The translations under genes were made by a program, and so were the position numbers. A stretch of DNA of 63,437 nucleotides, filler included, from Folioceros fuciformis (lineage: Eukaryota): assembly GCA_049999805.1 (NCBI GenBank). It is 7 parts of 7 records of this genome, joined end to end, with 100 filler letters (N's around TTAATTAATTAA, not from the genome) between each part and the next. Parts side by side here need not be neighbours in the genome. Positions count along the whole stretch, not along the records: positions 49,757 to 60,912 come from JBNGIO010005436.1; 6 more parts are not named here. The stretch is one strand, 5' to 3'. This document shows positions 9,573-63,437 of this stretch, one piece after another. Under the pieces are notes generated by a model, which ran no database searches, was not told where the DNA came from, and saw only the letters and a list, made by a program, of their open reading frames with translations. Numbering within the stretch: position 1 is the stretch's first letter; each line of letters opens with the position of its first letter.

Positions 9573-12500
9573 ATGGCGGCCTCGGGCGATGTGGAATCGG
9601 ACCACCTCCGGACCGGCGAAAGGGGGAGGGGCGTCTTCCCCACCGCATACCTCTCCAGCGCCAACAGCGACGTGTTTTCCCGCACATCAGGCGTGGATGA
9701 GGTGGATGATGAGGAGGCGCTCCGCAGGGTGGCCTTGGAGAAGCTCAAGAGGACGCCTACCTCTACACGCAAGGCGATGGAGAGGCTGGAGAAGCTCCCT
9801 ACTTATGAGCGTGTCAGGAGAGTGGTTTTGCAGCACTTGGATACGGACGACAAGGATATCGACGTCAGTAAATTGGGACGCGCGGATCGACAGACCTTGC
9901 TCGCCAACATACTCCAACTCAATAGCGGCCAGGGTAGCCAGACCTTCCTTCAGAACGTTCGAGATCGCTTAGACAAGTGAGTGATCAGGAGTGAGCGAGC
10001 TCGTCGGCCACCGATTGCGACTGTCTGTCTTTATTCTGTGTGTGTGGAGGCGGGAATCATGAACTCTAATAGAATTTCGGATGATTGTGCAGAGCCGGCA
10101 TTGCCTTGCCTACCATTGAGGTGCGGTATCACCAGCTCACCATTACAGCTCAGGTGCACATTGGCCAACGGGCACTTCCAACGCTTATCAACTCCACACT
10201 CAATGTCGTCGAGGTGACTTTCCTTTCAGTGCAGTACCTACTCCGAGTCGGAGGAATTTGCTTCATCCCTCCTTTCCTTCAGCACCAAGGTGCGCCGGAA
10301 TAATGATTTACTCCTAGTTATTGCCTTGGATTGGTCTCTTCAGGGAGCGTTGGAGAGAATTGGTTTGGCGCCATCCAAGAAGCGGAAGCTTACTGTTCTC
10401 AAAGACGTGAGCGGGATCATCTATCCTGGAAGGTATTCCACACTGTTTCTCTACTCCCAATTGCTAGCGCATTTTAAATTCTCCTCAGCCTGCTCATTAT
10501 TTACCTATTACGCATTGACAGGATGACTTTACTCCTTGGGCCACCAAACGCTGGGAAAACCACTTTCCTGCTCGCTTTGGCGGGAAGATTAGACCCCGAA
10601 CTGAAGGTATCTCGGACTTACAACTGCTCTTCAAATTTACGTTCCAATGTCTTGGGTCTCCGTTCAACTTGGGTGCCTTGCCTCTCACTTATCAACAGTG
10701 CAGACAGATGGCCGTGTCACATACAACGGCCACGATTTGAAGGAATTTGTTCCCCGAAGGACCTCGGCATACATCAGCCAGTACGATGTGCAGGACGGGG
10801 AAATGACGGTCCGTGAAACACTCGATTTTTATGGCAGATGCCAAGGTGTTGGTGCAAGATACGGTAAGACTCCAATCAGCAGATGCACCGTCACACCCGG
10901 CGATAACCAGCTAGCTAATTTCTCCGTAGGCTGGATCCTTATTCAAAAGTCGGCAACGTTGACGATACCGACTGATATCTTTCAGAAACGCTAGTTCAGC
11001 TTGCAAGGGCCGAGAAAGCGTCGGGAATCAAGCCAGATGCGGATGTGGATGCCTTCATGAAGGTAGTGTGAAGTGGTTGCAAGGTCTGAGTTGAGAGTGA
11101 CGGCTTGCCAGCTTCCATCAAGTTACAAATCTGTATAAACCCGTGAGCTCAATCGTTCGCAGGCGGCGGTTGTGGAAGGAGCTGCGACCAGCATCATAAC
11201 TGACTATATTCTCCAGGTAAGTCATCGTAGCTTGTGCTCCCGGTCACTGGGGATGTGCCACACACTTTTTACGTGTCGCTCATCGTCACAGACGTTGGGC
11301 CTGGACATTTGCGCGGACACGTTTGTTGGAAACGAGATGAGGAGAGGCGTCTCTGGCGGACAGCGAAAGCGAGTGACTACAGGTTACTTTTGTTTTGTCA
11401 GTTCTTCGTCCTGCTGACAATGATACCAAAAGCGACTGATGGATTTCCATGGATGTCCAAGTGGCTCACTAGTTGTGGGTGATGTTCAGGGGAGATGTTA
11501 GTCGGTCCCGCCAAGGCTCTTTTCATGGACGAGATTTCAACGGGGCTTGATAGCTCGACCACATATCAAATTGTGAAATTCCTGCGTAATGCTGTACATT
11601 CTTTAGATGGAACAATGGTGGTTTCCCTCCTCCAGCCTGCACCGGAAACCTTCGAACTATTCGACGACCTCATACTGCTCTCGGAAGGCCAGATCGTGTA
11701 CCAAGGACCGCGTGATCTGGTTCTGGACTTCTTCAGAGACATGGGATTCGTTTGCCCGGAGAGAAAGGGTGTGGCCGATTTTCTGCAGGAGGTATGTAAA
11801 TAGCTCTTGGAATCTGCCTGCTCAGACACGCCTGTGACCGTGCCTTCACAAATGATGGCTGCGGATAACACGACATCTGGAATTTAGGTGACGTCAAAAA
11901 AGGACCAAGAGCAGTACTGGCATGATCAATCCCAACCGTACGCTTACGTCTCGGTGGCCACCTTCGCACGTCAATTCAAGAGCTTTCATGTGGGGAAACG
12001 GATCGGTGAGGAAATGTTCATCCCCTATGACAGGGCAAGAAGTCACCCTGCAGCGCTAGTCAAACAGAAATATGCTCTTAGGCGATTCGACCTATTCATG
12101 GCATGCTTCTCCAGAGAGGTCCTCCTACTGCAGCGGAATGCTTTCGTCTATGTCTTCAAAGTTGTACAGGTAAGGTTTTGTCTCAGATTTGAGTGTTTCC
12201 GCCTAGATTCCCTTATGTAGCGCGACGGATATTTTTGACTGAGATCTCGATCTTTCACCACTCTCCATTTCACAGATAACCATTGTCGCCAGCATCAGTA
12301 TGACGGTGTTTCTTCGTACAGAAATGCATCACGATGCTGTTAGTGACGGAACTAAATACATGGGGGCTCTTTTTTTCGGCTTGATCAACGTGATGTTCAA
12401 TGGCTTTGCTGAGCTGGTCATGACAATCGACCGACTCCCAGTGTACTACAAGCAAAGGGACCTGCTGCTATACCCGGCCTGGGCATACACTCTACCTACT

Positions 12501-15500
12501 TGGATCCTAAAAATCCCTCTCTCGCTGATGGAATCAGGCATTTGGGTCATATTAACGTACTATGTTGTTGGATTTGCACCTGAGCCCAGCAGGTTAAATC
12601 ATTCGATCTACACCGTTTCCTACGTCGCATATCTTTGCAGACACCGACTGTGGTATTCTTAACTCTGACACAATTTTTGGGGGATGCATTTTTTGCAGAT
12701 TTTTCACCCAGTTTCTTTTGTTCTTTTTGGTCCATCAAATGGCCCTAGGGCTTTTCCGACTGATTGCCTCAGTTGGTCGGACAATGGTCATTGCAAATAC
12801 AGGCGGCTCATTTGCGTTGTTGATTGTCTTTGTGCTTGGTGGCTTTGTTCTATCAAGAAGTGAGTGGGTTTTTTCAGGAAATAAATACTTGATGGTTTCA
12901 GTGGAGGATTTTTCGAGGGGGATTAAAGCCTAACTCTTCCGCTATTGTGCTAACAGAGAACATCCATCCGTGGTGGATTTGGGGCTACTGGATTTCACCT
13001 TTAATGTACAGTCAAAATGCTGTCAGTGTGAACGAGTTCCTGGCTCCTCGCTGGTCAGAGGTACTTAAACAGTGGCCAGTACGCCTGCTCGAAATAATCT
13101 TGATTGAAGTTCTAAACCTCGATTTTGACTCTGGTTTTCAGAAGTTCATACAAATCGGGCAAACGAACCGAACAATAGGCGAGCGGATTTTGGAAAGTCG
13201 AGGAATGTTTACGGACAAGAAATGGGTTTGGATTGGAGCCCTTGCTCTCATTGGTTATAGTATCCTCTTCAATACGTTGTACACGTTGGCACTTCAATAT
13301 TTAAACCGTAAGCTTTGCGATCTTACAATCCTAAAAGTCTATGCATTGTTGCTAGGCTACATGACACTTCCTCTAGAATCTCCAGGGTATATGATATGGG
13401 TGCCATGTCTTCATCAGGCTTGATCATTCCTCTCTCTACCTTCTTTTATAATTGTTCCGATCTCAAGTAATAAGTATGACGTGGTTACTGGCTGTTGTGG
13501 CATGTGATGGAATACAGCTGTGGGAAAGTCCCAAGCTGTGGTATCTAAGGAAATGCTTGAGGAGAGGTCGTCCAATTCTGCTTCATCCCAGAGGTCTCCC
13601 ATTTCTGCTTCACCCCAGAGGTCTTCCAATTCTGCTTCACCCCAGAATGGTAACACAATTCATTAGTAGTGAATCGACATCTAGTTGTGTTTCCAATGTG
13701 CTCCTAAGTGTTGTGATATCCTGGATAGACTCATTCTGAATGGGGCATTGGGTTTGCAGGAACCCAGGAGTCCAGAAACGCACCAAATGTCGGTGATGAA
13801 GTGGAAATGCTCGAGAATGGTCGCCCTCGGAAAGGCATGGTTTTGCCGTTTCAACCTTTAGCACTCACTTTTCACAATGTCAACTACTATGTAGACATGC
13901 CACCTGTAAGTTTTCTGAGACGCGAAATCGAAATGGAACTTGTCACATTCACCGCTGCACACACGCACTTATCTTACCTTTTTAATTGTTTCAGGCGATG
14001 AAGCAACACGGGGTGACTGAAAATAGACTCCAGCTGTTGAAAAATGTCAGCGGAGTGTTTCGGCCAGGAATTCTAACAGCACTCGTGGGTGTCAGCGGAG
14101 CAGGGAAGACGACACTGATGGATGTGTTGGCAGGTAGAAAAACAGGTGGGTATATTGATGGGGCTATCAGTGTGTCCGGGTATCCCAAGAAACAGGAGAC
14201 CTTTGCACGGATAGCCGGATACTGTGAGCAGCAGGACATACACTCACCGAATCTAACTGTTTACGAGTCACTTGTTTTCTCTGCGTGGCTTCGTTTATCA
14301 TCTGACATTGACGCCAAGAAGCGAATGGTAAGCACTCACAAGCTAGCTAGCTGTTGGCCACCCTTTCTCTTTTGAAACCGGAACAGCTTACACGTCCTTG
14401 GTGTCGTGCTTGCAGAAGTTTGTACATGAAGTTATGAATCTTGTGGAGCTAACTCCTTTGAGGGACGCCTTGGTCGGACTCCCTGGGGTAACAGGTCTCT
14501 CAACAGAACAGAGAAAGAGGCTAACCATTGCTGTAGAGCTTGTTGCTAATCCTTCAGTCATCTTCATGGATGAGCCAACCTCCGGATTAGACGCCCGTGC
14601 TGCAGCAATTGTCATGAGGACAGTTCGGAACACTGTTGACACTGGTCGAACGGTGGTGTGTACTATTCATCAACCAAGCATCGACATATTCGAGGCTTTT
14701 GATGAGGTGAGTTGTGATATGCTCCTCCATTCTGGTCTCGTGATTGTAATGGGACAAACTCGTGAAATCTGTAGCTTAGTCATAAATTCTATTCATCGTT
14801 CACTTTACAGCTCTTGTTGATGAAAAGAGGAGGGCAAGTCATCTACGCAGGTCCATTGGGCAGACACTCCTGCGAATTGATCTCTTATTTCGAGGTTTGT
14901 GTTCTGACGTTTTGAAAACAGTTCAGACGTTGGGGTTAAATGGGTTCAGTTCTTTGACTCTTTTGTCGTCTGATTTGTCCGCTGAATCGCAGGCTGTTGA
15001 GGGGGTTCCTAAGATTTCGGATGGCTACAATCCAGCTACATGGATGTTGGAAGTGACCGAGACATCGCAGGAGGCGCACCTTGGTATTGATTTCGCTGAT
15101 GTCTACAAAGGATCGACTCTTCATGGGTAGGTATCCATCATAAGTTGCTTTGGGTACTTGGTCTTAGAGGTTCGCAGTGTTTGCCCAACCCGCAGGGCTG
15201 CTTAAATCCTGTCCCGCAGGCGAAACGAGGAGATGATTCTGGACTTAAGCAAACCACAATCGGACGAAAAGGAGCTACATTTTCCAACGAAATTTGCACA
15301 GCCTTTCTGGGTCCAGTGCGAAGCAACCTTGTGGAAACAGAATAAGTCCCACTGGCGCAATCCTCAGTACAATGTTGTTCGGATTTTCTTCACGATTATA
15401 GTTGCTGTCATGTTTGGTTCGATATTCTGGGATTTGGGACAAAAACGGTAAGCCGTCCTTACCAACGTTGTTTATTCTGGGGGGTTGAGCCTCAGGTGAC

Positions 15501-16405
15501 ATCTTTTCACTCAAATCTCTCCTCGTTGTGGCAGCTCAAAGTTTCAAGATCTGTCCAACTTGATGGGGGCTATGTATGCTGCCATATTGTTTATTGGAAT
15601 AAACAATGCCGGATCAGTGCAGCCAGTTGTATCTGTTGAGAGATCCGTCTTTTACCGCGAACGTGCGGCCGGGATGTATTCTGCATTGCCTTATGCTTTT
15701 GGCCAAGTAAGAAACCGATTTTCTGTTGGATTGTATCTGAGATGTCGCAGACATCTTCTCGAACTGACACGTCGCATTTTCGGGATACAGGTGGTTATTG
15801 AACTGCCATATGTGTTTGTTCAGACAGTGGTCTATTGCGCGGTTCTCTACTCCATGATCCAATTCGAGTGGACCGCACCCAAATTCTTTTACTTCATCTT
15901 TTTCAGCTATTTCACGTTTTTGTACTTTACCCTATATGGGATGATGACCGTCTCCTTCACGCCCAACCTACCAGTGGCCACTATCGTGTCATCCGCCTTC
16001 TATGGAGTGTGGAACCTGTTTGCAGGGTTTATGATCCAGCGTCCTGTAAGTGGAGTTCTTTGTTTGCATCACCAATTGATGCTTCTGATGATGTCCATAG
16101 TGGGCTGAAATTGTTCCTGTGTTGTGGGACAGCAAATCCCTGTGTGGTGGCAGTGGTATTATTGGGCCACACCTGTGGCGTGGTCAATATATGGTTTGAT
16201 CACTTCTCAGTTGGGTGACGTTAACAGCACCTTAGTACTGGCGGACGGTATCACCACCCAGACGATGAAAGAATTTCTGAAGCACAACCTGGGGTTCGAG
16301 TACGGTTTCTTAGGTTGGGTGGTACTGGCGCATGTGGGATACGTAGTTGTGTTCGCTTTTGTCTTTGCCTTCAGCATCAAGGTCTTCAACTTTCAAAGGC
16401 GATGA
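9573..16405 (+). CDS. Full-size ABCG / PDR transporter, copy 2 (tandem paralog, multi-exon)
   Basis: Same domain order and essentially the same intron positions as copy 1: [51 protein letters not shown]; ends VFNFQRR* at 16405. Confidence 0.96.
13565..13645 (+). repeat. 3 x 27-bp coding tandem repeat ([27 protein letters not shown]) in the PDR2 linker
   Basis: aggtcgtccaattctgcttcatcccag and two variants, in frame within an exon. Confidence 0.9.
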
Positions 16406-30723: not shown

Positions 30724-33376
30724 TGTGTAAACGAAACAGAAGTTAATTAGTATATGAGTTGTGTATTTATAGATAGCATATGTAACCCTCAAATATAACA
30801 CTGGTTATAATAACTAGGGTTAATTAACTAATGTTGGGTTAAACCCTCTCAACACCCCCACTTAAGCCAACACGGCTTACCATGGGGCGTACCAGGCTAA
30901 TAGCCAAGGCTAAGGACCAAGCATGAGTATTTCACAAACACGCAACATCATTACGCCCGCACGCGTAGAGCAAGCATAAGAGGCACAGAGCATTGATCAA
31001 GAGTAGAAAATAGGAATTGGCACCATCCTTGGCACGAAGTCTCGACTATGAAGAACGCGGAGGTACATGCAGGCGAGGTTCCCAAGGAAAGGCAAGCATT
31101 AGTAAGCCAACAGTCGCTCTAGCACAAGATCCAATAGCAAGTTTAGCTCTAGTTCACAGACCTGCTCTACCAGAAAACCAAGCGCAAGGTCTCCAAAGTT
31201 TGCGAGACGAGTGGGGCGGCGTAATTGAGATTGAATGGCACACAGACGCTGAGCTTGAGGACTCTGGCTCACTATTCATTGCTAGTGTCACAACCTTGGA
31301 TCCCATAGCCAACTCCACAAATGAGGAGGAGGAGGAGGTGAACAGCTAGTATGCAAGCTGAAGCTTGGCAGAAGGTGCCAACAACACTGATGCCCCCATC
31401 AACACCCACCTGTAGTTCGTGATTGCAACTCTGGAAAAGGTAATGACCTCCTTGAAGCTCAATAGGCAAGGGTAGAAAATCAGCAACCAGCAATAGAAGA
31501 GGAGGTAGCTACTCCAACAGCTTCAACAGCCCCTAGTAGACGCAAGCAATGCCATGCATGCATCAGACAATGGCAAGTGCATCATCTATAGAAGGCGCTA
31601 TTATAAATGGAGCTGACTGCAAACATGTAAGGGTTTCCTCTTTTTTTTGTTTTCACCTAACCACGACTTGATTTCTGACAATGAAGCTTCATCCACTGAC
31701 CAAGGTACTAAACCATAATCAACTCATCACGATTATAATTATATGCAAGAGACAAAACAAAAGATGACACAAGACTCACAGGTTTTAGCTAGCAGAACAC
31801 CTTCAAAGCAAGCAAACAATCTGCAAATTTTGCCAGAAGAGACTGGGGAGCATAGAAATAGTGGTAAGCAGACAGACTGTAGATAGGACAAACAAATAGA
31901 CTATTCAGTACCCAAATAAACTTATGTAAGTTATTGTGGATACGTAAACTCTCTCAACCCCAATCCTGCAACATTTTGAAAGTGTCGACTCCTCAAGAGC
32001 CCTTTTGTAAGTATGTCTGCTATATTGGTGTTTGTGTTGATATATTCCACTTGCACTATTCCTCATTCGACTGCATGTCTGATACAATGATGGTATAACT
32101 CAAGGTGTTTTATGCATGCATGGAAACGAGGGTTGGAAACAAGAGCTATAGCACTCATGTTGTCACAATACAACTTGGTAGGGCCTTGCTATTTTTGCTT
32201 CACAGACACAAGGAACTGTCTTTCCCACTCAGCCTCCTTACAAGCATTAGTAAGTGCCTTATACTCGGCTTCTGTTGATGAAAGTGCGAGTAAATTCTGC
32301 TTCTTACAGCTCCAACTTACAACTGCAGAGGATAGAAGGAAAAATACGCAGACAAGCTTTTTTGGGAGTTTAAATCTGAGGCCCAATTCACATCAACATA
32401 TGAGATAAATAGCAGACTCTTGCTCCCACTTGATGAGTAATGTAAGCCATAAGATATTGTGCCTTTCAAATATCCATAAATACTCTTAACAACTACCCAG
32501 TGTGTGCGTCTACGGTGCCTCAAGAACTGGAACACCACACTCACTGAATAGTTGATGTTTGAACGAGTCCAATTAGAGAGAAAGATCAGACAACCCACTG
32601 GCTCAGCATAAGGGACCACAACCATATCCCCACAATGAGCACTAGTCTACGATGAAAAATATGTTGTCAACTTAATCCCCACTGTTGAGGGAGTAGATAC
32701 AAGGTGAGCATTCTGCAAATTAAATTGATGTAAGATCTCCTTTAAATACTTGGTCTGATGCGGAGTCCTCAAACCAGCTGATCGATTTTGCAGGATTTGT
32801 ATGCCTAAACAAAATTGTAGGTCCCCTTGGTTAGTCATCTCAAACTCATGGCGCAACATATCCTTGATTGTGGTGAGCTACTCCAAGCAAGTACTCAGCA
32901 AAACGCAATCATCCACATAAAGGGCAAGGATAATGAAATGAGGACTAGAGGAGAAGAGGAAAACATTACTGTCGGCAGGAGACTCCAAGAAACCAAGTTG
33001 TTTAAGGTACTTCATAATCCTCCACTACCATGCTCTATGAAATTGTTTTAACCCATAGAATGTTTTAAGTAGCTTACAAACTTTTTGAGGGTGCTACATG
33101 TCAACAAAACCCTTAAGTTGGTCCATGTACAAAGTCTCCTCTAACTCTCTATGTAAAAATGCCATGCATACGTCCATCTACTAGACCTCCAAGTCAAGCT
33201 CAGCTGCCAAGGTCGACAAGATCCAAATAAAGGGAGGTTTCACGATAGGGGAAAAGCTGTCCCCATAGTCAATACTAGGTATCTGACTAAAACCCCTAGC
33301 AACTAACCGAGATTTATATCTGGCTATGGTCCCACCTGTTGAGTTATCGAGCTCTATATGAGCTAAACTCATGTGG
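30724..33376 (-). mobile_element. Degenerate Ty1/copia element E (RT-RNase H, ~1-kb 3' region, PPT, ~130-bp 3' LTR)
   Basis: RYKSRLVARGFSQ, FEMTNQGDLQFCLGIQ, YAEPVGCLIFL, SWSCKKQNLLALSSTEAEYKAL; PPT tggggg then tgttgagag at 30854; TATA-like ctataaata in the LTR. Confidence 0.88.
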
Positions 33377-49756: not shown

Positions 49757-52114
49757 GCACATATACCGAGGCCATTACAGGACCTGATAAACATCACTGG
49801 CAGCCGTCCATTCAAGATGAATATTATTCACTCATCAAGAATTCCACTTGGGAGCTCTGTCCTCTTCCCGCAGGCAGAAAAGTTATTAGCTGCAAGTGGG
49901 TATTTAAACACAAACTTAACGCTGAAGGCCAGATTTCCAGACACAAGTCTCGCCTTGTTGCTCGTGGGTTTACTCAAATTCCTGGTGTGGATTTCACTGA
50001 AACCTTTAGTCCGGTTGTGAAAACCCAATCTATACGCATGATCATTGCTCTTGCTGCTGCCTATGAATGGGATCTTCAACAAATGGACGTCTGTACGGCA
50101 TTCCTGTGTGGCGAGTTAGAAGAGGATATTTACATGTAGCAGCCCGAGGGCTTTGCGGATCCTGAACACCCAGATTGGGTCTGTCGACTAAAGAAGACCA
50201 TCTACGGTTTAAAGCAGTTAGCACGGGAGTGGTATAAGGCCATCGACAAATACCTTAAGTCTATCGGCTTTATACAAAATCCTGGTGATGCTAATGTCTA
50301 CTTGTACTCCCAGAATGGTAAACTGGTGATTTTGGCGTTGTACGTCGATGATGCCATTCTGGCTTCAAACAACCCTGAACTTTTAGCTTGGGTAAAGCAG
50401 ATGCTGCACAGCAAATATGACATGAAAGACATCGGTCCACTTACTTTCGTTTTGGGGGTATAGTTGGTTCGTGAGCCAGCCTCTCGTACCATTTTTCTCC
50501 ATCAGGCTAAGTATATTGCAGAGACTCTTCGACGATTTCATCTTGATTCTTCGAAGCCTGTTTCTACTCCTGGCCCAGTTGGTGCTAAGCTCTCTTGCAA
50601 TCAGTGCCCTCAGACTGATGCAGATCGGCAAGCTATGTCTCCAGTGCCCTATCGCCATGCAGTTGGTTGTCTCAATTACATCAGCTGCTTGACTCGCCCG
50701 GACATCCAGTACTCGGTTAGTGTCGTTTCTCAATTTATGGACAATCCTGGAAAGGAGCACTGGGGTGCCGTTAAACGGATTTTGCGTTACCTGAAAGGCA
50801 CTCAACAGTATGGGCTCTGCTTCCGGGGGCNNNNNNNNNNNNNNNNNNNNNNNNNNNNNNNNNNNNNNNNNNNNNNNNNNNNNNNNNNNNNNNNNNNNNN
50901 NNNNNNNNNNNNNNNNNNNNNNNNNNNNNNGACGGAAGCGGAATACAAATCCTTGACCGAAGCAGCCAAGGAGGCCATTTGGGAACACAGTTTCCTCAGT
51001 GGTTTAGGGTTTCTGCCATCTCAGCCCACTGTGATCTCGTGTGACAATATGTCCACGATTGCTATGACTGCCAATCCGCGATTTCACGCGAGAACTAAGC
51101 ACATCGAGGTGCATCACCATTTTATTCGCNNNNNNNNNNNNNNNNNNNNNNNNNNNNNNNNNNNNNNNNNNNNNNNNNNNNNNNNNNNNNNNNNNNNNNN
51201 NNNNNNNNNNNNNNNNNNNNNNNNNNNNNGCCATCTCAACCCACTGTGATCTCGTGTGACAATATGTCCACGATTGCTATGACTACCAATCCGCGATTTC
51301 ATGCGAGAACTAAGCACATCGAGGTGCATCACCATTTTATTCGCCACTCTGTGCAAGAAAAGGAAGTACAAATTGAGTATATCCCTACAGAGGAGAATCC
51401 GGCTGATCTTCTCACAAAATTTCTGCCTTCCTCTCTACATGCATGACATATGGCTACTCTAGGAGTCACAGGTTTCTCTCTCGCGAGCTAAGTGATCCTT
51501 GGACAGCTGTGCGACTGCAGACTTTGGCGGATGAAGCTCTCCTTCAGATTGAATCGCCATCTTCCTGCAGTCCTCGGTGTTCTGCTGCACGTCTTGGAGT
51601 CTTCGGCAGCAGACATCCTGCTGCTTGCTTCAGCTGATGCTTCAGTTGGAGCTCTTCCACCGTTTTCTCAGCCCCTGCAATTCTGGTTTTACACTTCAGT
51701 GACAGCATGCACATCAACTGGATTTTCCATCCCGCTGCTGTCCATCTCTGCTCCATCGTGCACGTCTTCTCCACATTATGCTGTGCTTTGCGTCGCTCGT
51801 GCTGTGGTTATGTCGTGCCAGGCTGCGCATTCTTTCCCTGTTGCTGGTGAAGGATGTATATTGCGATTGCCAGGACGCACAGGTTCAGAATGACGAGGAG
51901 TGTTTCTCCCATTCTGCTCTCGCGTTTCCGTCGCTAACCTGGCCGATTCGCTCACAGGGGCGTGTTGGAAATTAAACCCCGTTAGGGTTAGCATTTCGTT
52001 TATGTCATAATTAAGCGAATAGCCACTTAGCGAATAGTTACGACGTTTCAGGAAAACACCTTAAAAACCCTTGTTGCAATTTCCTGAAAATTAATTAACC
52101 ATGTTCTTCCAAGA
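49757..52114 (+). mobile_element. Ty1/copia element A: RT-RNase H (premature stops), ~500-bp 3' region, PPT, ~152-bp 3' LTR
   Basis: KSRLVARGF, QMDVCTAFL, LYVDD, TEAEY, CDNMSTIA..HARTKHIEV, NPADLLTK; PPT aggggcg then tgttggaa (51963) ...ttccaaga (52114). Confidence 0.9.
51544..51912 (-). pseudogene. Antisense extra ORF of copia A (N-terminal TM helix plus helical region; internal TAA)
   Basis: ATG 51912: MGETLLVILNLCVLAIAIYILHQQQG..* (51808-51810), in frame with the 51544..51774 ORF. Confidence 0.6.
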
Positions 52115-54537
52115 ACTCTGACATAATGGAGGTCAACTTCACTACTGGACTAAAAAGTCTGGTTTCCTCGTAGTCAAAGCCAGGGATCTAAGTGAAGACT
52201 TTTGCAACGAGTCTGGCCCTATGTCTTGCTACTGCTACTGCTCCGTCTGGATTGAGTTTGCGCCTGAATGTCCACTTGCAGGAGATAGGTTTTCTTCCTT
52301 TCGGTAAGTCCACTAACTTCCACGTTTTGTTGCTCATTAAGGAGTCGTACTGTGATTGTACTGCAGCTGTCCATTCTGGTGAAGCAAGTGCCTCGTCTAT
52401 GGATAGGGGTACTCCCTGCATTTCAATGGCTGACAGTGCCTAGTGTGCAGCATCTTCCAAGTGGTCGGCTGTGAGGTTGAGAGATGGAGGATGCCTGGCG
52501 CTCCATGCGACCTGTGAGGGTATCACTAGGAGTGTATGGTGGCTCTTTCCATTCACTTCGTGTAGGTTTGTTTCTAGTGGATCTCCTGATAGCTTCTAGA
52601 GGTGCAGGCAGAGTGGGTTCGGGATGGTACACTTGGGGCATTATCTCCGGGGATGTAAACTCTGGGGTTTGGGAGTATGTAGATGATGTGGAGTGAGAGA
52701 GGTCTGGTTGCTGCTGTACAGGCTGCTAGGCTAGTGGTTGTTGGGTTGGTGGTGTAGGTTGTTGAAGTACTTCTTGCTTAGATCACCTTTTGAGTTTGCA
52801 GTGAGGTGATGTTGTCATCATAGTCTGTGGCCCCTTCAAACTCAAGGGGGGATTCAGTGGTAGGATGGCCAAAAATGCTAGGTGTAGGCAAGGGAGTGGA
52901 AGTGAGGGAAGACTGGAGGAGTGTGTTGAGAAAATGGGTTTCGTGGAAATGAACACTGCGGGAATGAATTACCTCTCGGGAGTGGGGATCAAAGAGCTGG
53001 TAGGCTTCGACTTGGTTGGAGTATCCTATGAACAACATCTTTTGACCTGTATCATCCCACTTCCTTAAGGTTTCTGCAGCAATATGGGCAAAGGCAGGAC
53101 TACCAAAAATACGGAGGTGGGATACCCTAGGTTTGTGGCCGCTCCACCTCTCGAATGGAGTAGTGCTGGGGAGTTCCTTAGTTGGAAGCCTGTTTTTCAG
53201 GTACGTGGAAGTGCACACAGCTTCTGTCCAGTATGCTTTTGTTAAGCCTGCGAGTTTGAGGAGAGACCTCGAGATTTCCAACAAGGAACGATTCAGTCGT
53301 TCAGCAAAAGGGTTTTGTGAGGGAGTATAAGGTACCATGTATTGTCATTGAATGCCCTTAGAGCGGCAAAATCTTTGGAAGGCATGGCTGATGTACTCAC
53401 CCCCGTTGTCTGTTCGCAGGGTGGTTACTTGAAAACCTGTTTGCCGCTCAGCAGTGAGAAGAAAGTCTTGGAAACATGAAAGGGCCTAGTCCTTTCGCTT
53501 CAAGAAGTAGACATGGCAATATCTGCTCCATTCGTCCAGGAAGGTAATGAAATAGCTGTGGCCTCCAAAGGAGTCGGTGCTCATGGGTCCACATATATTG
53601 GAGTGGATTGTCTCAAGCAGTCGTCTGGCACGGATAGGAGAAGGGTCTTTGAAAGGTGATTGGTTTAACTTGGTATACGGACATATCTCGCAGAAGAAGT
53701 CCTTGTGAACTTTGAGCTTGATAGGATCCTTATACATGGTGGGGTCTGCAAGCATGTTGAGGTATCTGGAGTTCATATGGCCTACACGGCAGTGCCATAA
53801 CAAGGACTTGTTTGAGGATGTTGGTGGACTACTATCTACCAGGAGTGATGTAGATTGGATGTTCAGGAGGTAAAGATCATTGAAGGGAAGTCCGTGAGCC
53901 AGGGCTATTTTGTCAAAGTCTTTGCTGTGACAGATGGTGCAGTGGTTTCCTTGGAACGTGATGGTGAGGTCATGTTCTGTGGCTAAGTTACGGATTGACA
54001 GCAAGTTCTTGGTCATTGCAGGTACGTGGAGGACTCCGTTGATGGTGAGGAGCTCTCCAGTAGAAAGACGCAATTGGACTTTTCATGAACCCTGAATGGG
54101 TAGTGCGCTATCGTCTCCTAAGAGGACGTGTTGGTAGGAGAGGATCGGGTGGTAGGAGGTAGACATGTCTTGACAGCTACATATGTGTGTGGTGGCTCCG
54201 GAGTCTAAGAACCAACGACATGTGTCTGTTCTGGTAAGGGTGAGGCAGACTGCTAAGATGGAATTGGCTTATAACGACTTTGGTAGTTGTGGTAAGGTGA
54301 GACTCGTTTCTGGGAGCTTCTCTGCGTGGCTTGCCTGCCTGCTTCTTTTGGCATTCACTTTTGTAGTGACCAAGATTTTTGCACTAGTTACATGCTCCTT
54401 TGGCTGATTTTTTGTCAAATGATCTGTTTTGTCAAATGATCGATTTGGGAAGCCCGAGAAGCTTGGAGAAGGTGGGCCTCTTCGGTTGGGGAAACCTCCT
54501 CGTCCTCCACCATGCCTATTTCCTCAACCTCTGGAAG
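52115..54537 (-). mobile_element. Ty1/copia element B fragment (gag C-terminus, protease, integrase, RT start), truncated by elements A and C
   Basis: WFLDSGATTH protease, LWHCRVGH GAG-pre-integrase, IHSNICGP, RTDNGGEY, YTPSQN..AERLNR, TWKLVDLPKGRKPISCKW. Confidence 0.9.
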
Positions 54538-57500
54538 TGAAGAGTGATGATACTTTCTATAAGTCCGAAGACACTCAAAAACAACATCTAAGGACTAGAT
54601 GCAAGAAAGCATATATAGAATAAAAGTATATATCAATAGTAACATGGTGTTGTTTTTATAGTCAAAGTATTGCTAACCCTATCAGTTCAATAACCGAGTT
54701 ATGTTAACCATACGTTACTTATGTAACCTCTAACACCCCCTCTTAACTTGACGAGGTTAAAGGAGAGTTTCTTAAACCCTAGTCCATCATAAACCCTCGC
54801 CCTTCCTCATGATGAGACGAGATGCAAGTATTAATGCAGCGTAAGCGGGAAAGCACGCAGGCGGCCTGTCTGTCGATCCAACTCAACCAAGAACCACATT
54901 AAGTCTCGGAGCTGATCAAGGATGGAGTTGTTTGCCTTTCCCTTTTGCCACACCAACGTTGTACACAGTTGCTACAGAAGTTGTCCTGAAACAAGCAACA
55001 ATGGCGCGTAGGAGGAACAGGGGCATAGGCTGTCAGAAGCATCCACGGGAGGAGTCATCACAACAGTAGAGTAACTCCTTTGAGCCTGGCGAGACACAAG
55101 CAGCAAAAGGGCCTACAAAGTGGCCAACGCAATCAAACAGGAACTTGGTGTGTTATCTCCTCCAGACAGTGAAGAAGTGTGAAGAAGCCGAGGAAGCGGT
55201 CAAGGCCGCAAAGTGTCAAGTCATGGATCCTCAGGATTGGATAGCCAAGTTTCCATCAAGAGATCCGACCATGTTTCCACTATTAGAATCTGAGATAAGG
55301 CACCTTCTGTAGGAACTGTCCATGCTTGGGTATACTGGTAAAGTCGGCGGCGGCTCTGAAGCTGACAACACCTAAAATACATATCCTCTTGAAAGAGGTA
55401 AGTCTTCTGGATCATTGTGTTGGTACAGAGGGCAACTCACGATTGTTTGTACATAGGTTGCTTCATCCACTGAGAACCCTCGTTTGTGCTCCTGGTAGGA
55501 AAATCTAGATGATGACCTATCACATGAAGCCTCCTACCAGACTAGCACAGCGTCTACTGAGAGTTGTTCTGAGTAGGCATAGTAAAAGCTTGCAGACCAA
55601 TAGAAGTTAGATGCTTGTAGTGCTTGATTTCGCAAGCCCTTTTGTTAAGAGGTCTGCAGTATTGTCATGTGTGTTTACATAATCCACTTTAGCAACTCCT
55701 CTCTTGGCCACATCCCTGATATAGTGATGGTAGAGCTCGGTGTGCTTAGTTCAAGCATGAAACCTCGGATTGGCCACAAGGGCGATAGCTGACTTGTTGT
55801 CACATAGTAGTGGAGTGGCTGTTGTTTGAGTCATGAAAATAGATTCTAGGAACTGTCTTTCCCACTCAATCTCCTTACATGCGTCTGTCAAAGCCTTGAA
55901 CTCAGCTTAAGTAGATGAAAGGGCAAGGGAGGATTGCTTTTTGCAGGACCGGTTGACAGTGCTAGAGGATATGAAGTAGACATAAGCAGAGAGACTTTTC
56001 CTGGAGTCTGAATCCGAAGCCCAATCGGCGTCCGCCAAAACTGTAAGAACACACTCCTTTTTACCACTAGCTGTATAATGCAAGCCAAGGTTGATGGTGC
56101 CTTTAAGGTAGCGATAGATCCGCTTTACTGTAGACCAGTGAGCTCTACCAAGAGTCTTCAAGAACTGGGCTACTACACTAACTGAGAAGCTAATGTTAGG
56201 CCTAGTCCAGTTAGCCAAGAAGATCAGGCACCCAACTACCTCTGCATAAGGGACAGAGACCATGTCCATTTCCTCCTCTGCAGACTTTGGGGATTGATCT
56301 GCAGTGAGTTTTTCACCAACAACAAAGGGAGTAGACATTGGCCGAGATTCATCAAGGTAAAAATGCTTTAAGATCTCCTTTAGGTATTTAGTTTGATGAA
56401 GAACTATGGTACCATTCTGTCTGTTTCTTAGAATCTGTATGCCCAAGCAGAACTGTAGAGGGCCTTGATTCGTCTTCTCAAATTCACTGCCCTGAAGAGC
56501 CTTAATAGTATTGAGCTGAGACACACTATTACTGAGGAGAATGGCATCATCAACGTACAAAGCCGGAATCACCAACGAGCCTGAGCCAGCTAAGTAAAAA
56601 ACATTTGTGTCTGCTGAGGATTGTAGGAAATGAGACTGAATCAGGAACTTTCTGATACGTTTGTACCATGCTCTCGGACTCTGTTTTAGGCCATAAATTG
56701 TCTTCAACAGTTTACAAACTTTATGAGGCCACTTCTGATTAACAAACCCTTCAGGTTGAACCATATACAGGGCCTTCTCAAGCTCTCCATGTAGAAAGGC
56801 TGTACAAACATCCATTTGGTGAAGCTCAAGATCGAACTCAACAGCAAGGGCAAGCAAGATTCGAACAGATGGTGGCTTGACCACAAGTGAGAATGTATCT
56901 CCAAAATCGACACCTGGAATCTGTGAGAATCCCCTAGCTACAAGTCTGCTCTTGTATCTAGATATAGTTCCATCAGCTTTAAGTTTGGTTTTAAAAACCC
57001 ATTTGCAAGTGATTGGCTTACGTCTAGGGGGAAGATATGCAAGTTCCCATGTGCCATTCTTCATCAACAAGTTGTACTCATCATCAATGGAGACTCTCCA
57101 GTGTTCAGCATCAGGTCCTAACAAAGCCTCTGAATAACTTTGTGGGTTTGGTCGAACATCAGGTACATGAAGATCTATTACATGCGCTCCATGTCTAAGA
57201 AAATCATGGGCCTAATATGGAGGTTCAAGCCAGTTGTCACAAGACCTACGCTCTTGCACTGGGTAGTGGAAAGGTTCAACTTCAGGGACTTCCACAAGAG
57301 CTACTTCATCAGGGTCAGTTAAGTGCTCCTCATTCACAACTTCCTGTAGAACCTCCTCTGCGGCCAAATCATCTGATCTGATTGAGTCTTTAGACTGAAC
57401 TAATCGAATGTCTTTGTCTTGGTTGGCAGGATCTATAACTGGTTGGGCATCCTGTGCATACAAATCATCAACTCCACATCGTCCAGCACCAAGTTCAGCC

Positions 57501-57759
57501 GGAATCAATACTTCACCATCAGAATCTGGATAAGTATAAGGAACTTGAGTCTGTTCTACATCTAGACCAGCAAACAAGTCTTGTGTTGTGGAGAAAAGTT
57601 CTAACTCATATAGTCATGTTACTTCTAGGTCAGAACGACGAGAAGTGAGCTATGCATGACAAGGTAATTTTAGAATTTGAAGGGTCAAACAGTCTATAGG
57701 CTTTAGACTCTTCGGAATATCCGAGAAAAATAAGAGGTTTAGCTCGATTATCTAACTTC
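54538..57759 (-). mobile_element. Ty1/copia element C (integrase end, 405-aa RT ORF 55907-57124, RNase H, ~850-bp 3' region, PPT, ~198-bp 3' LTR)
   Basis: RT motifs QMDVCTAFLHG, LYVDD, ADADWA; PPT agaggggg then tgttagag at 54735; LTR contains ctataaaa; LTR 3' end at ~54538 is approximate. Confidence 0.92.
54812..55375 (+). pseudogene. Antisense extra ORF of copia C (~187 codons, three in-frame stops)
   Basis: Manual translation: MRRDASIN...FATPTL...KWPTQSNRNLVCYLLQTVKKCEEAEEAV...LLESEIRHLL*ELSMLGYTGKVGGG; homologous to 58035-58508. Confidence 0.72.
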
Positions 57760-60700
57760 TGATCCAATCGATAGAGCATTGGTAGCTTGATAGCAGCGTA
57801 TGCCTGTGAATAGGAGGAATATGAAAAACATGAGCAATTAATTGAAACATGAAGTACCAAGAGTATTTATAGTATAATGTATTTAACCTAATTAACTAAG
57901 TATATTTAACCCGAGATGGTTATCTATTCAACACTCCCACTTAACCTCGACGGGTTAAAGTGAAAAGCTATTTATCCAGATCTTCTTCAGCAAACCCTAG
58001 GCTGTCACGGCGCTTCAAATTCCCTTTCCTTGCAATGAGTAGAGACATCAGTGAAAATCCTGTTGCATGGGTCGCCCTATCTCTCTTGTTGCTGGAAATT
58101 GCAGCCATTACCTTCCTTGCAACGCCATCAATCGTAAGGCTCATCATCAGCATGATCAAGTATGTGAGCGATAGGCTATCAAGCCAAAAGCAATTGGAGA
58201 GCAAAAGCCAAAGCCAGGAAGAAGAATTCTAGGGTTCAAGCAGTCCCAAGGCTTCACTGAAGATGTGGCCAACCACGGCGCACAAGCGCACGTTGTTGAA
58301 TCTGGCTAGGGCAGATGCTGAGTGCAGTAGATTGGAGAGGCTAATGGAGGAAGCCCAGGCTCGCACATCCCAACTCAAGGAACAGGCCGGGGCAGGAGTA
58401 GAGATGAGGGAGGACGACAGGCAGTTGACAGTGGACGAATACAAGGATCTGCTAAGGGAACTGTCTGCTCAAGGACTGTACACGCCAAGGGAAGAAGGAG
58501 GCGCGTGACTCTAGAGGTAACAATGTCCGTGATTCAAGTGATTCCATGTTCCAGGGTTAGATCAGTGTTTGGCTTCATCCTCTGAATGCATGGAAATTAA
58601 TTGCTTGTCTGGCCTATGTTGACTCCCACTGAAAGGGGAGAGTGTGCATGGGGAAAGCAGACAAAGCTGGATAGGTGATTGAAACAAACATGTGCCTGAA
58701 TGTATTGTATATGCAGGCAGGAGGAGACATGAAGGAGAAAACCACATAGTAGAAGCTAGAATTGTTTGGGATACTCTAGGTCTGCTTATCATGTAAGCTT
58801 TAGTGTTGTAGTAAAGTGTGATGAGAAATCTACAAGACCCAAGCCATCTACATGTGTCTGATGCTTGTGCTTGGGCAAGGACTTTGTGAGAATGTCAGCA
58901 ACATTAGAATCTATATGTATGTAAGTGGGCAGAACAATACCTCTGGATTTTACATCTCTAACGTAATGGTGCTAGATCTCAATGTGTTTGGTATGGGCGT
59001 GGAAGCGGGGACGCTCAACAAGGGCAAGAGCAGACTGATTGTCGCAAAAGAGGATGGTAGGTTCTGGCTGCACTGCATGGGCTAAAGCCAGAAAGGCCCT
59101 CTCCCACTCCACCTCTTTGGCAGCATCAGTTAAGCGTTTGTATTCTGCCTTTGTGCTTGACAGAGCTATACTTGTTTGTTTTTTATAGCTCCAACCAACA
59201 GCCGCGAAGGACAGAAGGAATGCTTAGGTCGAGAGGCTCTGACGTGAATTGCCATCAAATGCCCAGTCAGCATGAACGAAACCATGTAAGGTAGGGTGTG
59301 AACCTCCTCGCTTGTAACATAGGCCCAAATAATGTGTACCCTTGAGGTAACAGAATACCCATTTAACTGCTGTCCAATGATTTCTCCCAGGACATTCCAA
59401 GAAATGAGAAGCAGCGTTAACTGCAAACGTGATATCAGGACGTGTCCAATTGCTCACAAACAAGAGGCTTCCCACAGCATGTCTGTACGGGACATCCTTC
59501 ACATCTTCGATATTCATAGCTGAGGTGGGACTATCCAGTTTTGTGAGTCGCACACCAGTTGCTCCAGGTGTGGCAACAGGGTGAGCTGCGTCCATGTTGA
59601 ATTGTTGCAGAATTTCAGCAATGTATTTGTGTTGATGAATAATAATCATTCCTTGCTCTCTCACTCGCAGCACTTGAATGCCCAGGCAGAACTTCAACTC
59701 ACCAACATCAATCATTTCGAATTCATTACGTAACAAAGCTTGAACTTTTGCTACTAGCAGCTTGTCGTCGGCTACAAATATAGCATTGTCTACATATACT
59801 GCCAACAGCACATAGGAGGAGCCTTCATCATATATATAAACTGATGGAGCAGCGGGACTCTGTCGAAAACCAAGTGCACGCAGGCAAGTGTCTAGTCTAG
59901 CATTCCATCGTTCTGCAAATTGTCTCAAGCCATAAATACACTTGATTAACAGACAAACCCAATCTGGATGTGTAGGGTCCTCATAGCCCTCGGGCTGCTC
60001 CACGTACAACTCTTCCTCTAAGACACCATGTAAGAAAGCAGTCTTGACGTCCATTTGCTCAAGCTCCAAGTCATGTTCAGCTACTAGAGCAAGAATGAGG
60101 CGGATAGATTGGGATTTGACTACAGGGGAGAATGTCTCCTGAAAGTCTAGGCCTGGAATTTAGGTAAACCCCCGGGCACACAAACGAGCCTTATACCTAG
60201 CAATCTCCCCCTTAGAGTTAAGTTTGTGTTTGAAAACCCATTTCCAGGTAATGGGTCTGTGGCCTTCAGGACGGGGAACAAACTTCCAGGTACCATTTTG
60301 AATTAAGCTATTGTACTCATCTTCCACATTATATTTCCACTTATCCCTATCTGGGCTTGAGAAGGCTTCCTTGAGTGTGACAGGCTTAGGAGGAATAATT
60401 GGTGGGAAAACATGGGGGATAGTGGGAGTGCAGACTCCCACTGACTTGAGAAAATCAATGGATGTGTAACGAGGTTCTGTCCACTCAGAGGGAGGGCGAT
60501 ACACACGTGCAGACCGACAAGTAGGCTCAGGTGCATCCGCTGGTGGAACAGGTAATGGCTCATTGTCACCTGCAAAATCAGAGTCTTGGGAAGAATTGTC
60601 AGGTTCAGATGCTGAATCTAAGTGATTATCTAGAGTTGGGGCAGGATCTGCAACGGATTCATCATCTTGTGACTGGACAACTAGGTCAGCACCTCCATCA

Positions 60701-60912
60701 ATGTCATCAGGGTAATCATCATGTTCATCTGTAAACGCCAAGTGACCATCATGTTGTTCGAATAATATGCCACCACCTGTGACTGGTGGCTCAAGTGTCT
60801 CCAGGAAAGTCACACTCCTCGCTATAGTAGGCTGTAGAGTGTCTGCATCAATAAGTTTGTAAGCTTTAGCAATCTCGCTGTAACCAACAAATATTAACCC
60901 CTTTGAACGGTT
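57760..60912 (-). mobile_element. Ty1/copia element D (integrase end, RT, RNase H, ~850-bp 3' region, PPT, ~174-bp 3' LTR) inserted in the integrase of C
   Basis: QMDVKTAFLHG, VYVDN, HADWA, STKAEY; PPT gtgggag then tgttgaatag at 57933; LTR with ctataaata ends ..ggatca at 57760, directly before the KLDNRAK of C. Confidence 0.9.
58035..58508 (+). pseudogene. Antisense extra ORF of copia D (157 codons, one in-frame TAG): N-terminal TM helix plus helical/coiled-coil domain
   Basis: Track ORFs 57960..58232 and 58263..58508 share a frame and are separated only by TAG 58230-58232; hydrophobic VAWVALSLLLLEIAAITFLATPSIVRLII. Confidence 0.75.
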
Positions 60913-61312
60913 NNNNNNNNNNNNNNNNNNNNNNNNNNNNNNNNNNNNNNNNNNNNTTAATTAATTAANNNNNNNNNNNNNNNNNNNNNNNNNNNNNNNN
61001 NNNNNNNNNNNNTCTGTGGATAGTCTAAGAGGTGGTAGATCCTTGTGGTGGTAGGGCCAGAAGCTCATTGGTGGCAGGTTGTGCTAGAAGTCTAAATAAG
61101 TGGCTGGTGACAGCCGGCTGGCCTATTAAAATAATATTTCTCAAGTTAGAGAGAGGTGAAGTCAGAGAGAGAGAGAGGCTCCTATAAGATCAGGTGAGCC
61201 TGAAGGAAGAAGGAGTCATTCACTTTGGGAGTCAGTCTATCTCTTTGTGAGCTCTTGGAGGTCCTCTCTTCATGAGCTCTTGTGGTCTGTCCCTGCTTGG
61301 TTTAGGACCTGT

Positions 61313-61473
61313 AGTGTGTTGCCGGCTGTGCAACGTCTGGTAGGATCGCAAGCCGTGTGTTGCCGGCTGTACAGTGTCTGGTAGGATCGCAGGCAGCGTG
61401 TTGCCGGCTGTACAGTGTCTGGTAGGATCGCGGGCAGCGTGTTGCCGGTTGTATAGTGTCTGGTAGGATCACA
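61313..61473 (+). repeat. 4 x ~41-bp tandem repeat in an LTR/UTR-like repeat scaffold
   Basis: gtgttgccggctgtacagtgtctggtaggatcgc.ggcagc units; one inverted unit also at ~62599-62641. Confidence 0.88.
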
Positions 61474-62143: not shown

Positions 62144-63437
62144 TAGGAGGGGGGACGAGACCCTCCCATTCGAGGGTATAGGAGGGGGGACGAGACCCTC
62201 CCATTCGAGGGTATAGGAGGGGGGACGAGACCCTCCCATTCGAGGGTATAGGAGGGGGGAATCTGACTGTGTCAAACCCGGGGGAATCTGACTGTGTCAA
62301 ACCCGGGGGAATTGCCAAGCTCGCCTGAAAGCAATGCGGATAGCAATCTAGTCGGAAAGGATTCACCGGCTCTCTCCCTGAGGCGGTCTGGGAAACGGCC
62401 CAAGACCCGGCTGCAGTTGGACTGGCAGGAAGGTGCTTGGGTGTGTGAGATGTCCAAGGTCGGCCTGATTCTGAAAAAACAGGGGCGGGGGCAGNNNNNN
62501 NNNNNNNNNNNNNNNNNNNNNNNNNNNNNNNNNNNNNNNNNNNNNNNNNNNNNNNNNNNNNNNNNNNNNNNNNNNNNNNNNNNNNNNNNNNNNNCTTATG
62601 ATCCTACCAGACACTATACAACCGGCAACACGCTGCCCGCGTGTGAGCTCTCGATCTTTGGGGATCGGGTCTCGTTCCCTCCCATTCGGGGGCAGAGGAG
62701 AAAGCCAGGGACCGGGGTGGTCTATGGAGGCGGTTGGTGTGGAGACGCTGATAATGGACATGCTGGTGGAGCAGACGAACGACATTACCACCTTGGACCC
62801 TAACAGCGAGAAACATCTGCGGTACACGGATACTAGGATTGATGAGCAAGAGTGACAAATTTCCATCAAGGGCATGCCGATGTCGCTGGTGTTGGAGGAC
62901 AGTGGCGGCAAGTCCTATCTGTGCAATTTGATGGACACACCGGGGCACGTGAATTTCTCGGATGAGATGACAGCCGCGTTGCGGCTNNNNNNNNNNNNNN
63001 NNNNNNNNNNNNNNNNNNNNNNNNNNNNNNNNNNNNNNNNNNNNNNNNNNNNNNNNNNNNNNNNNNNNNNNNNNNNNNNNNNNNNNTAGGAGGGGGGACG
63101 AGACCCTCCCATTCGAGGGTATAGGAGGGGGGACGAGACCCTCCCATTCGAGGGTATAGGAGGGGGGACGAGACCCTCCCATTCGAGGGTATAGGAGGGG
63201 GGAATCTGACTGTGTCAAACCCGGGGGAATCTGACTGTGTCAAACCCGGGGGAATTGCCAAGCTCGCCTGAAAGCAATGCGGATAGCAATCTAGTCGGAA
63301 AGGATTCACCGGCTCTCTCCCTGAGGCGGTCTGGGAAACGGCCCAAGACCCGGCTGCAGTTGGACTGGCAGGAAGGTGCTTGGGTGTGTGAGATGTCCAA
63401 GGTCGGCCTGATTCTGAAAAAACAGGGGCGGGGGCAG
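62144..63437 (+). repeat. 351-bp block present twice (62144-62494 and 63087-63437), containing 35-bp hairpin-bearing and ~26-bp tandem repeats
   Basis: taggaggggggacgagaccctcccattcgagggta x3 and gggggaatctgactgtgtcaaacc x2; the blocks appear identical. Confidence 0.9.
62742..62985 (+). pseudogene. Fragment of U5 snRNP GTPase Snu114/EFTUD2 (GFA1/CLO-like) with an in-frame stop
   Basis: [74 protein letters not shown] at 62853-62855 where Arg is expected. Confidence 0.9.

Follow-up and report, generated by a model that had tools for sequence, protein, structure and literature searches.

Possible remains of an antisense open reading frame between pol and the 3' long terminal repeat of two Ty1/copia retrotransposons of Folioceros fuciformis

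Two retrotransposons of Folioceros fuciformis raise the question of whether a compact Ty1/copia element can carry a protein gene on the strand opposite gag-pol. The two elements, here called C and D, lie in a stretch of 63,437 nucleotides from assembly GCA_049999805.1 (seven parts joined end to end; hereafter the window), in which four copia-type polymerase genes (A, B, C and D) and one fragment are found. An earlier note on this DNA had proposed that plus-strand open reading frames (ORFs) in the 3' region of the minus-strand elements C and D represent a conserved and selected antisense gene. Our comparisons suggest that in C and D the ~800-bp spacer between the end of pol and the polypurine tract (PPT) may contain a small antisense protein-coding ORF, fast-evolving and now decayed, a reading that we place slightly below an even chance. 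The likeness between the two frames and its in-frame spacing speak for it, while support from the openness of the frames, from homologues elsewhere and from occurrence in A and B is weak or absent.

Translation confirmed the two plus-strand frames and their internal stops. The C frame spans 54812–55375 (188 codons, with an ATG also at 54809) and is interrupted by TAA at 54842 and by TAG at 55067 and 55310; the D frame spans 58035–58508 (158 codons), carries a single TAG at 58230 and is already open from 57945. Each is flanked by the pol stop on one side and the PPT on the other, at 55554 and 54747 in C and at 58789 and 57945 in D. Of the 806 spacer nucleotides in C the frame fills 564, leaving 178 nt before the pol stop; in D it fills 474 of 843 and leaves 280. 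The two are positionally equivalent. In place and strand, between the pol stop and the 3' long terminal repeat (LTR) and opposite to gag-pol, both correspond to the antisense ORFs (aORFs) of the aORF-3'R type. The copies of C and D in the window are dead, in the antisense ORF and in pol alike.

The part shared most clearly by the two translations is an ungapped block of 70 codons (WPT ... LL.ELS..G) at 55121–55330 in C and 58266–58475 in D, both on the plus strand. All 15 identities that the earlier note had listed in it were found, as were the flanking motifs M.RD.S.N, F.ATP and YT..GG in both elements, the last of these with a one-residue gap. The block belongs to a C-terminal module of ~70–80 residues, running from W-P-T to L-L-x-E-L-S-x-x-G, that is in frame with the ATG in both elements. 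The N-terminal half varies between C and D; in D it contains a hydrophobic, anchor-like helix (residues 10–28) that is absent from C, with Kyte-Doolittle means over 19 residues of 2.33 and 1.09, respectively.

We then asked how far this likeness exceeds chance, and in which frame. The Smith-Waterman score between the two aORF translations, with X at the stops, was 66 (Gumbel p 1.9e-5), a value reached by none of 2000 residue shuffles (mean 28.8, sd 4.6, maximum 52). Over the ORF spans only, this was the best of the 36 C-D frame pairs; the next were two pairs in register, C-1/D-1 (46, p 0.007) and C+1/D+1 (49, p 0.014), and the rest had p values of at least 0.11. The best of 36 frame pairs in each of the other five element pairs, at p 0.0012–0.056, marks the noise floor. 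Multiplied by 216 (six element pairs times 36 frame pairs), the p value of the proposed frame is still ~0.004. The possibility that the other frames might be equally alike, as expected of plain DNA homology, thus did not hold: the proposed frame was clearly the strongest, at p 1.9e-5 against 0.007 or more. Among ungapped windows of 70 residues, the diagonal of the block scored 50 and the next best of 207 diagonals scored -2 (mean -40, sd 18); shared composition is therefore not the explanation. In a further control only the mismatching nucleotides were permuted, over 2000 rounds, with all identities kept in place. In the aORF frame the observed score of 37 compared with an expectation of 5.4 ± 9.5 and was reached in 7 of the 2000 rounds, and four of the other five frames were not above expectation. 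Judged from these comparisons, C and D are genuinely alike, and a protein-level likeness in the proposed frame explains this best.

The shared features continue outside the block as short islands in colinear order, beginning at the PPT and reaching into the frame. They comprise the PPT motif, AAACCCTAG, CCyTTCCT...ATGAGnnGAGA, GTGGCCAAC and GGAACTGTC. Their positions in C and D, respectively, are 54774 and 57992 for AAACCCTAG, 54812 and 58035 for ATGAGnnGAGA, 55120 and 58265 for GTGGCCAAC, and 55312 and 58457 for GGAACTGTC. The inter-island distances of C and D differ by 20 and 5 nt upstream of the ATG. Downstream of it the differences are 78 nt (26 codons) and 0 nt, both multiples of three, and ATGAGnnGAGA, GTGGCCAAC and GGAACTGTC share one frame in both elements.

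The best-surviving alternative is that the spacer is a non-coding 3' region, a 3' untranslated stretch perhaps with an antisense non-coding transcript or promoter, that retains a few short cis-acting motifs. The open frames would then be a by-product of a T-poor, purine-rich composition, and the protein score would come from the residues (W, P, C) that the islands happen to spell. We regard this alternative as substantial, though on balance doubtful. It gains from the DNA itself: the homology reaches upstream of the ATG, where it cannot be coding (the PPT motif, AAACCCTAG and CCyTTCCT). All six frames were raised on the true DNA register. There the aORF frame ranked first of 207 diagonals, and the other five frames ranked 4, 7, 1, 1 and 1 (scores -3, -11, -8, 4 and 22), so some homology must exist at the DNA level. 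WPT alone provides 23 of the 50 points of the block score. Copia elements with antisense promoters, AtRE1 and Mdoryco1-1, are on record without a described protein product, as far as the available parts of the source extend (PMC7264820).

Openness also failed to separate the two readings. Stop counts were compared with those of 2000 dinucleotide-preserving shuffles per span. The C frame has 4 stops including the terminal one (single-frame P 0.08), and D has 2 over 57945–58508 (single-frame P 0.0095; 0.0275 from ATG to stop). Taking the minimum over six frames, P rose to 0.45 for C and to 0.079 (57945–58508) or 0.22 (ATG to stop) for D. The openness of the antisense frames is marginal, being modestly significant only if the frame is fixed by the likeness test. 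The plus strand is T-poor (~20% T), so stops are fewer on both strands, and the pol-sense frame is nearly as open as the antisense one (3 against 2 stops in D, 5 against 4 in C). The spacers are 55–57% purine on the plus strand and pol is 50–52%, which is suggestive only. Codon-position periodicity (chi2 14.4, p 0.026 in D; 12.2, p 0.057 in C; 9.5, p 0.15 in A; window-wide median 9.1) was set aside as coding evidence, being too weak and biased by the choice of the frame with the fewest stops. A stem-loop beside the PPT was also considered and rejected: when 59 nt each from A, B, C and D were folded, the z-scores lay between -0.24 and +0.37.

Several features of the block itself likewise weigh against a protein-coding origin. 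Its nucleotide identity is 36% over 240 nt, with 39, 36 and 34% at codon positions 1, 2 and 3, so the third position shows no excess of change. Amino-acid identities are alike in the three plus frames (16, 13 and 15 of 80). In the permutation control one pol-sense frame was also above expectation (19 against -5.7 ± 9.4; 11 of 2000 rounds, P 0.0055). Nucleotide islands matching at 10 of 12 positions are frequent on unrelated C-D diagonals, where 17 were found.

Three observations are nevertheless difficult to reconcile with a non-coding spacer. The protein-frame signal (p 1.9e-5) exceeds the DNA signal (p 0.008 in a Smith-Waterman comparison of C with D) by two to three orders of magnitude, and DNA identity on the diagonal of the block was only narrowly the highest of 619 diagonals (82 of 210 positions against 80 for the runner-up). 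An exact spacing of 192 nt and an in-frame length difference of 78 nt would be unexpected in saturated non-coding DNA. Lastly, nine control spacers from metagenomic copia loci (302–1654 bp) showed ordinary stop densities of 2.9–7.1% in their best antisense frame and no open frame.

An old antisense coding ORF might also be expected in A and B, and here the evidence goes the other way. Identity to C in the reverse transcriptase (RT) is higher for A (60%) and B (54%) than for D (47%), yet the frames of A and B were not detectably homologous to those of C or D. Element A has the longest spacer of the four, ~1064 bp at 30867–31930, between its PPT (30855–30866) and its pol stop (31931–31933). A plus-strand frame starts there at an ATG at 30882 in an ACCATGG context and extends over 366 codons with 13 stops; the other two plus frames have 22 and 29, but the lower count was not significant (six-frame P 0.41–0.79). 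The spacer of B, where pol is on the plus strand, is ~461 bp long (51492–51962) and has an antisense frame on the minus strand from 51912 to 51544. Its 123 codons include one internal stop, and its strongly hydrophobic N-terminus, TLLVILNLCVLAIAIYILH, has a Kyte-Doolittle value of 2.45, close to the 2.33 of D. The B spacer is very T-poor and all six of its frames are open (stops [2,5,3|2,2,1]; six-frame P 0.66), as a purely compositional origin of open frames would predict. A resemblance between A and D (LPENQAQGLQSLRDEWGG and LRELSAQGLYTPREEGGA; p 0.012–0.021) was not the best of 36 frame pairs and was not counted.

That the C-D likeness is a chance match, picked by eye among many comparisons, appears improbable. 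Such a match would account for the silence of tblastn, which with composition-based statistics did not report C against D at E<=10, and of MAFFT, whose alignment of the DNA did not recover the block; it would also fit the commonness of 10-of-12 islands on unrelated diagonals and the restriction of the likeness to one of six element pairs. Against this stand a p value of 1.9e-5 obtained for frames that were defined beforehand by position (~0.004 after the 216-fold correction), a block diagonal 52 points above the runner-up, and motifs that are colinear from the PPT to the block. Finally, it is very improbable that the true coding frame is the mirror frame on the pol-sense strand, a small SIRE-like ORF after pol of which the antisense frame would be the shadow: its stop counts over the same spans are close (3 in D and 5 in C against 2 and 4), C-1/D-1 is the second-best frame pair and it exceeds the mismatch-permutation control, but its likeness is far weaker (p 0.007 against 1.9e-5), its translation is a Ser/Leu/Ala-rich low-complexity sequence with no conserved start, and stops interrupt it soon after pol.

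Searches for relatives of the putative protein gave negative results, which count against a coding ORF. The D and C aORFs and the B frame had no match at E<=0.01 in a library of 5.8 billion clusters; phmmer found no credible homologue of D among 1.84 billion representatives; and no Pfam family reached its cut-off for the aORFs. The sole phmmer hit, a 3485-aa protein of which seven stretches aligned to D residues 109–140, was taken for coiled-coil or low-complexity similarity and, uninspected, was set aside. The library searches likewise indicated no relation to the described gypsy aORF proteins, an indirect result with no one-by-one comparison. The folding check that the earlier note had proposed gave no support. 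AlphaFold2, run on the single D sequence with no alignment and with X at the stop, returned a poor model of three helices, with a predicted local distance difference test score (pLDDT) of 64 and a predicted template-modelling score of 0.31. In the ESM Atlas the 91 C-terminal residues of D had a recognition value of 2126, below the 2300 that 91% of proteins from known families reach. The best clusters there, of small phage Gp27-like proteins (0.93; 166 shared features), were at chance level and were rejected.

Outside the window, we compared 80 metagenomic copia loci with RT identities of 36–44%, 20 of which have LTR pairs. A tblastn search of these loci with the A–D frames gave only matches at E>=0.6. 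Two of the loci, L041 (4182–4256) and L040 (4219–4245), have the same PPT/LTR junction motif as the window elements (TTAAG.GGG.GTGTT) and an RVT_2 polymerase 40–43% identical to that of C. Their pol stop and PPT are only ~60 and ~11 nt apart, respectively, leaving no room for an extra frame, whereas the spacers in the window measure 461–1064 bp. The long spacer is therefore peculiar to the group in the window, where it has been kept in four elements that differ by 40–53% in RT. Long in all four and tiny in L040 and L041, it looks like an acquired region. A scan of viral contigs with the C+D RT alignment gave 117 pattern matches, none of which was a relative.

Further copies of the elements were sought in sequencing runs. 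Contigs of two DNA runs (X1 and X2) contained the D copy of the window itself, identical over 467 nt, along with related copies showing ~83–90% identity over both frames. Among the differences listed, one D-family contig covering 57848–58398 (56 differences, ~10% divergence) has four gap letters, at 57975–57979 and thus upstream of the ATG, and is gapless across 57980–58398. C-family contigs have at least three single-base insertions, after 54827, 54849 and 54882, with a net change of +3. One of them omits 55074–55118, a 45-nt skip before WPT, and has one other letter instead, which does not favour a maintained frame. As far as it goes, the indel pattern among copies is compatible with a constraint against frameshifts. 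Transitions made up 884 of the 1320 differences between copies in X1. A further run that we guessed to be RNA (X4) contributed a single piece of 36 nt, within pol. In a DNA run from the same sample (X3), 490 of 685 differences over 54500–59300 were C>T or G>A, resembling a bisulfite-converted library; this run could yield the methylation state of the copia elements.

How would such an ORF have been expressed? In active ancestors it would have been transcribed antisense from the 3' LTR or the PPT-proximal region. One set of promoter candidates lies in the LTRs: read on the plus strand, each LTR has TATTTATAG or TTTTTATAG, its own TATA box in reverse; bidirectional use of this TATA-like box is what we infer. 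The other candidate is AAACCCTAG, found on the plus strand at 54774–54782 in C, 35–38 nt before its two ATGs (54809 and 54812), and at 57992–58000 in D, 43 nt upstream of its ATG. This motif is telo-box-like, AAACCCTA being the plant 'telo-box' promoter element, and a second telo-box-like plus-strand site, AAACCCTC, lies at 54791 in C. The sequence AAACCCTM occurs seven times in the window (4.5 expected by chance), and four of the seven sites are 18–43 nt upstream of the first ATGs of the plus-strand antisense frames: 30841 in A, 54774 and 54791 in C, and 57992 in D. Because the motif falls within the LTR in A and within the internal region in C and D, its position is more constant relative to the ATG than relative to the PPT. 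The transcript would converge on pol and end 178–280 nt short of the pol stop. Its product, of ~155–190 aa, might modulate the element's own cycle, as has been proposed for gypsy antisense ORFs, and pairing of the antisense RNA with genomic RNA could give double-stranded RNA. The more specific roles suggested in the earlier note, namely membrane targeting, movement or anti-silencing, found nothing to speak for them beyond the hydrophobic N-terminus of D.

The arrangement has precedents in other retrotransposons. In gypsy elements, ORFs in antisense orientation are on record from the stretch between pol and the 3' LTR: in Grande (gene23), RIRE2/Wallabi/Gran3 and Retand (PMC7264820) and, as ORF2, in 15 Phaseolus gypsy families (PMC4093653). 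The C and D frames share with these Tat-type aORFs their place, their orientation opposite to gag-pol, their lack of similarity to known proteins and a high divergence between families. The Grande antisense ORF has its own promoter upstream of the ORF (PMC7264820; PMC4093653). The hosts differ, C and D being Ty1/copia elements with LTRs of ~130 bp and the Tat-type elements being large gypsy elements; the frames are also shorter, at 158–188 codons against 211–939 aa in Phaseolus gypsy (PMC4093653), and are known from broken copies with no match in protein libraries. Within copia, the closest comparison is the sense env-like ORF (eORF-3'F) present in 74% of SIRE elements, in 19 groups with little mutual similarity (PMC6317226). 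Like the C and D frames it is an extra, very divergent frame with no conserved domain between pol and the 3' LTR of a copia element. It is, however, opposite in orientation and far larger, and C and D are compact with short LTRs; their best-conserved frame is antisense, in contrast to the sense orientation that characterizes SIRE. Even when counted through their stops, frames of 158 and 188 codons fall below the 250 codons from which REXdb records such ORFs (PMC6317226).

As for an expression route, antisense promoters are cited for copia AtRE1 of Arabidopsis and Mdoryco1-1 of apple, and for the 3' LTR of human T-cell leukaemia virus (PMC7264820); transcription there runs from the 3' end antisense into the element, the route proposed here for C and D. 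For AtRE1 and Mdoryco1-1 the available text describes promoters and no conserved protein, whereas C and D offer a candidate frame predicted from sequence. Surveys treat copia as structurally uniform and single out only the SIRE sense env-like ORF (PMC6317226; PMC4093653; PMC7264820). In Phaseolus, 63 of 65 copia families have no extra ORF and the other two have a sense env-like ORF (PMC4093653); REXdb, with its threshold of 250 codons, counts such ORFs from 582 copia elements in 45 groups and singles out only the SIRE sense ORF (PMC6317226). The suggestion that an antisense gene is undescribed in copia agrees with these sources, in the available parts of which no copia antisense ORF family was found, although the REXdb supplementary tables may list antisense cases (PMC7264820; PMC6317226; PMC4093653).

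The domains of pol place C and D in Ty1/copia: both have an RVT_2-type RT and an integrase domain upstream of it, the domain order of copia. The C polymerase (55907–57211, minus strand) matches RVT_2 (PF07727, E 8.9e-66) and is part of a pol remnant at 55554–57800 that ends, after an inferred frameshift, in an RNase H tail and a stop at 55554–55556. Its integrase SH3-like domain lies upstream of the RT at 57630–57800 (minus strand; Pfam E 4e-13). The D polymerase (59152–60402, minus strand; RVT_2 at 59224–60159, PF07727 E 5.5e-50) belongs to a pol at 58789–60960 with an RNase H tail and a stop at 58789–58791; the upstream ORF at 60160–60960 (minus strand) contains SH3_retrovirus at residues 17–57 and the start of RVT_2 at 222–265. 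The polymerases of A and B are at 32335–33333 (minus strand) and 49759–50817 (plus strand), and a fifth copia element is represented by a short RT fragment just beyond the 3' LTR of B (52137–52409, minus strand). The RT of D is the least similar to that of C, which makes D the most distant element.

Pol stops were placed by means of the conserved RNase H tails (AD.LTK...GL..F), which gave 55554 in C (with the one frameshift), 58789 in D, 31931 in A and 51491 in B, and hence spacers of ~806, ~843, ~1064 and ~461 bp. The PPT/3' LTR junction motif AACACYCCCNCTTAAC occurs on the plus strand in C (54732), in D (57930) and, mismatched at one position, in A (30851); the junction of B is at ~51962/51963. 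In all four elements the TGTT start of the 3' LTR directly follows the purine tract. The PPT of C occupies 54736–54747 (minus strand) and its 3' LTR starts at 54735 and extends leftwards (TGTTAG... on the minus strand), and the PPT of D is at 57934–57945 (minus strand). The 3' LTR of D is ~129 bp long (57805–57933, minus strand) and ends in ...CACA, with a terminal inverted repeat, TGTTGAATAG and CTATTCACA. This LTR truncates the pol of C and abuts its integrase SH3-like domain, so D is nested in C; the 5' LTR and target-site duplication of D were not found in the window, and no 5' LTR partner for C or D was found there. A tandem array of a 41-nt unit (61313–61473; about four units, 86–90% alike) lies upstream of the RT of D on the sense strand of the element.

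Elsewhere in the window, two stretches of ~5.6 kb (1747–7401 and 10716–16221) are colinear and 65–80% identical, and probably represent a different repeat family in two old copies. The window contains 23 runs of N, many of exactly 44 or 100 bases, and two 351-bp stretches, each preceded by N, are 100% identical (62144–62494 and 63087–63437); duplicates and runs alike are probably scaffolding or masking rather than biology.

Taken more broadly, the window may hold a short-LTR Ty1/copia group with an old, fast-evolving antisense accessory gene. Such a gene would combine a bidirectional 3' LTR, AAACCCTA ~40 nt before the start, an N-terminus that varies and at times anchors the protein in a membrane, and a helical, conserved module at the C-terminus, and would be the copia counterpart of the Tat/Retand antisense ORFs and of retroviral antisense proteins. 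We consider this picture possible, with rather more doubt than confidence. Were the spacer non-coding, it would be a lineage-specific 3' region with a few conserved motifs, of local interest only. If the antisense gene is real, antisense accessory genes would not be peculiar to Tat-type gypsy elements, small ORFs below the usual survey cut-off of 250 codons would be shown to be missed, and these elements, at ~5 kb with LTRs of ~130 bp, would offer a compact system in which to ask what role such genes or antisense transcripts play.

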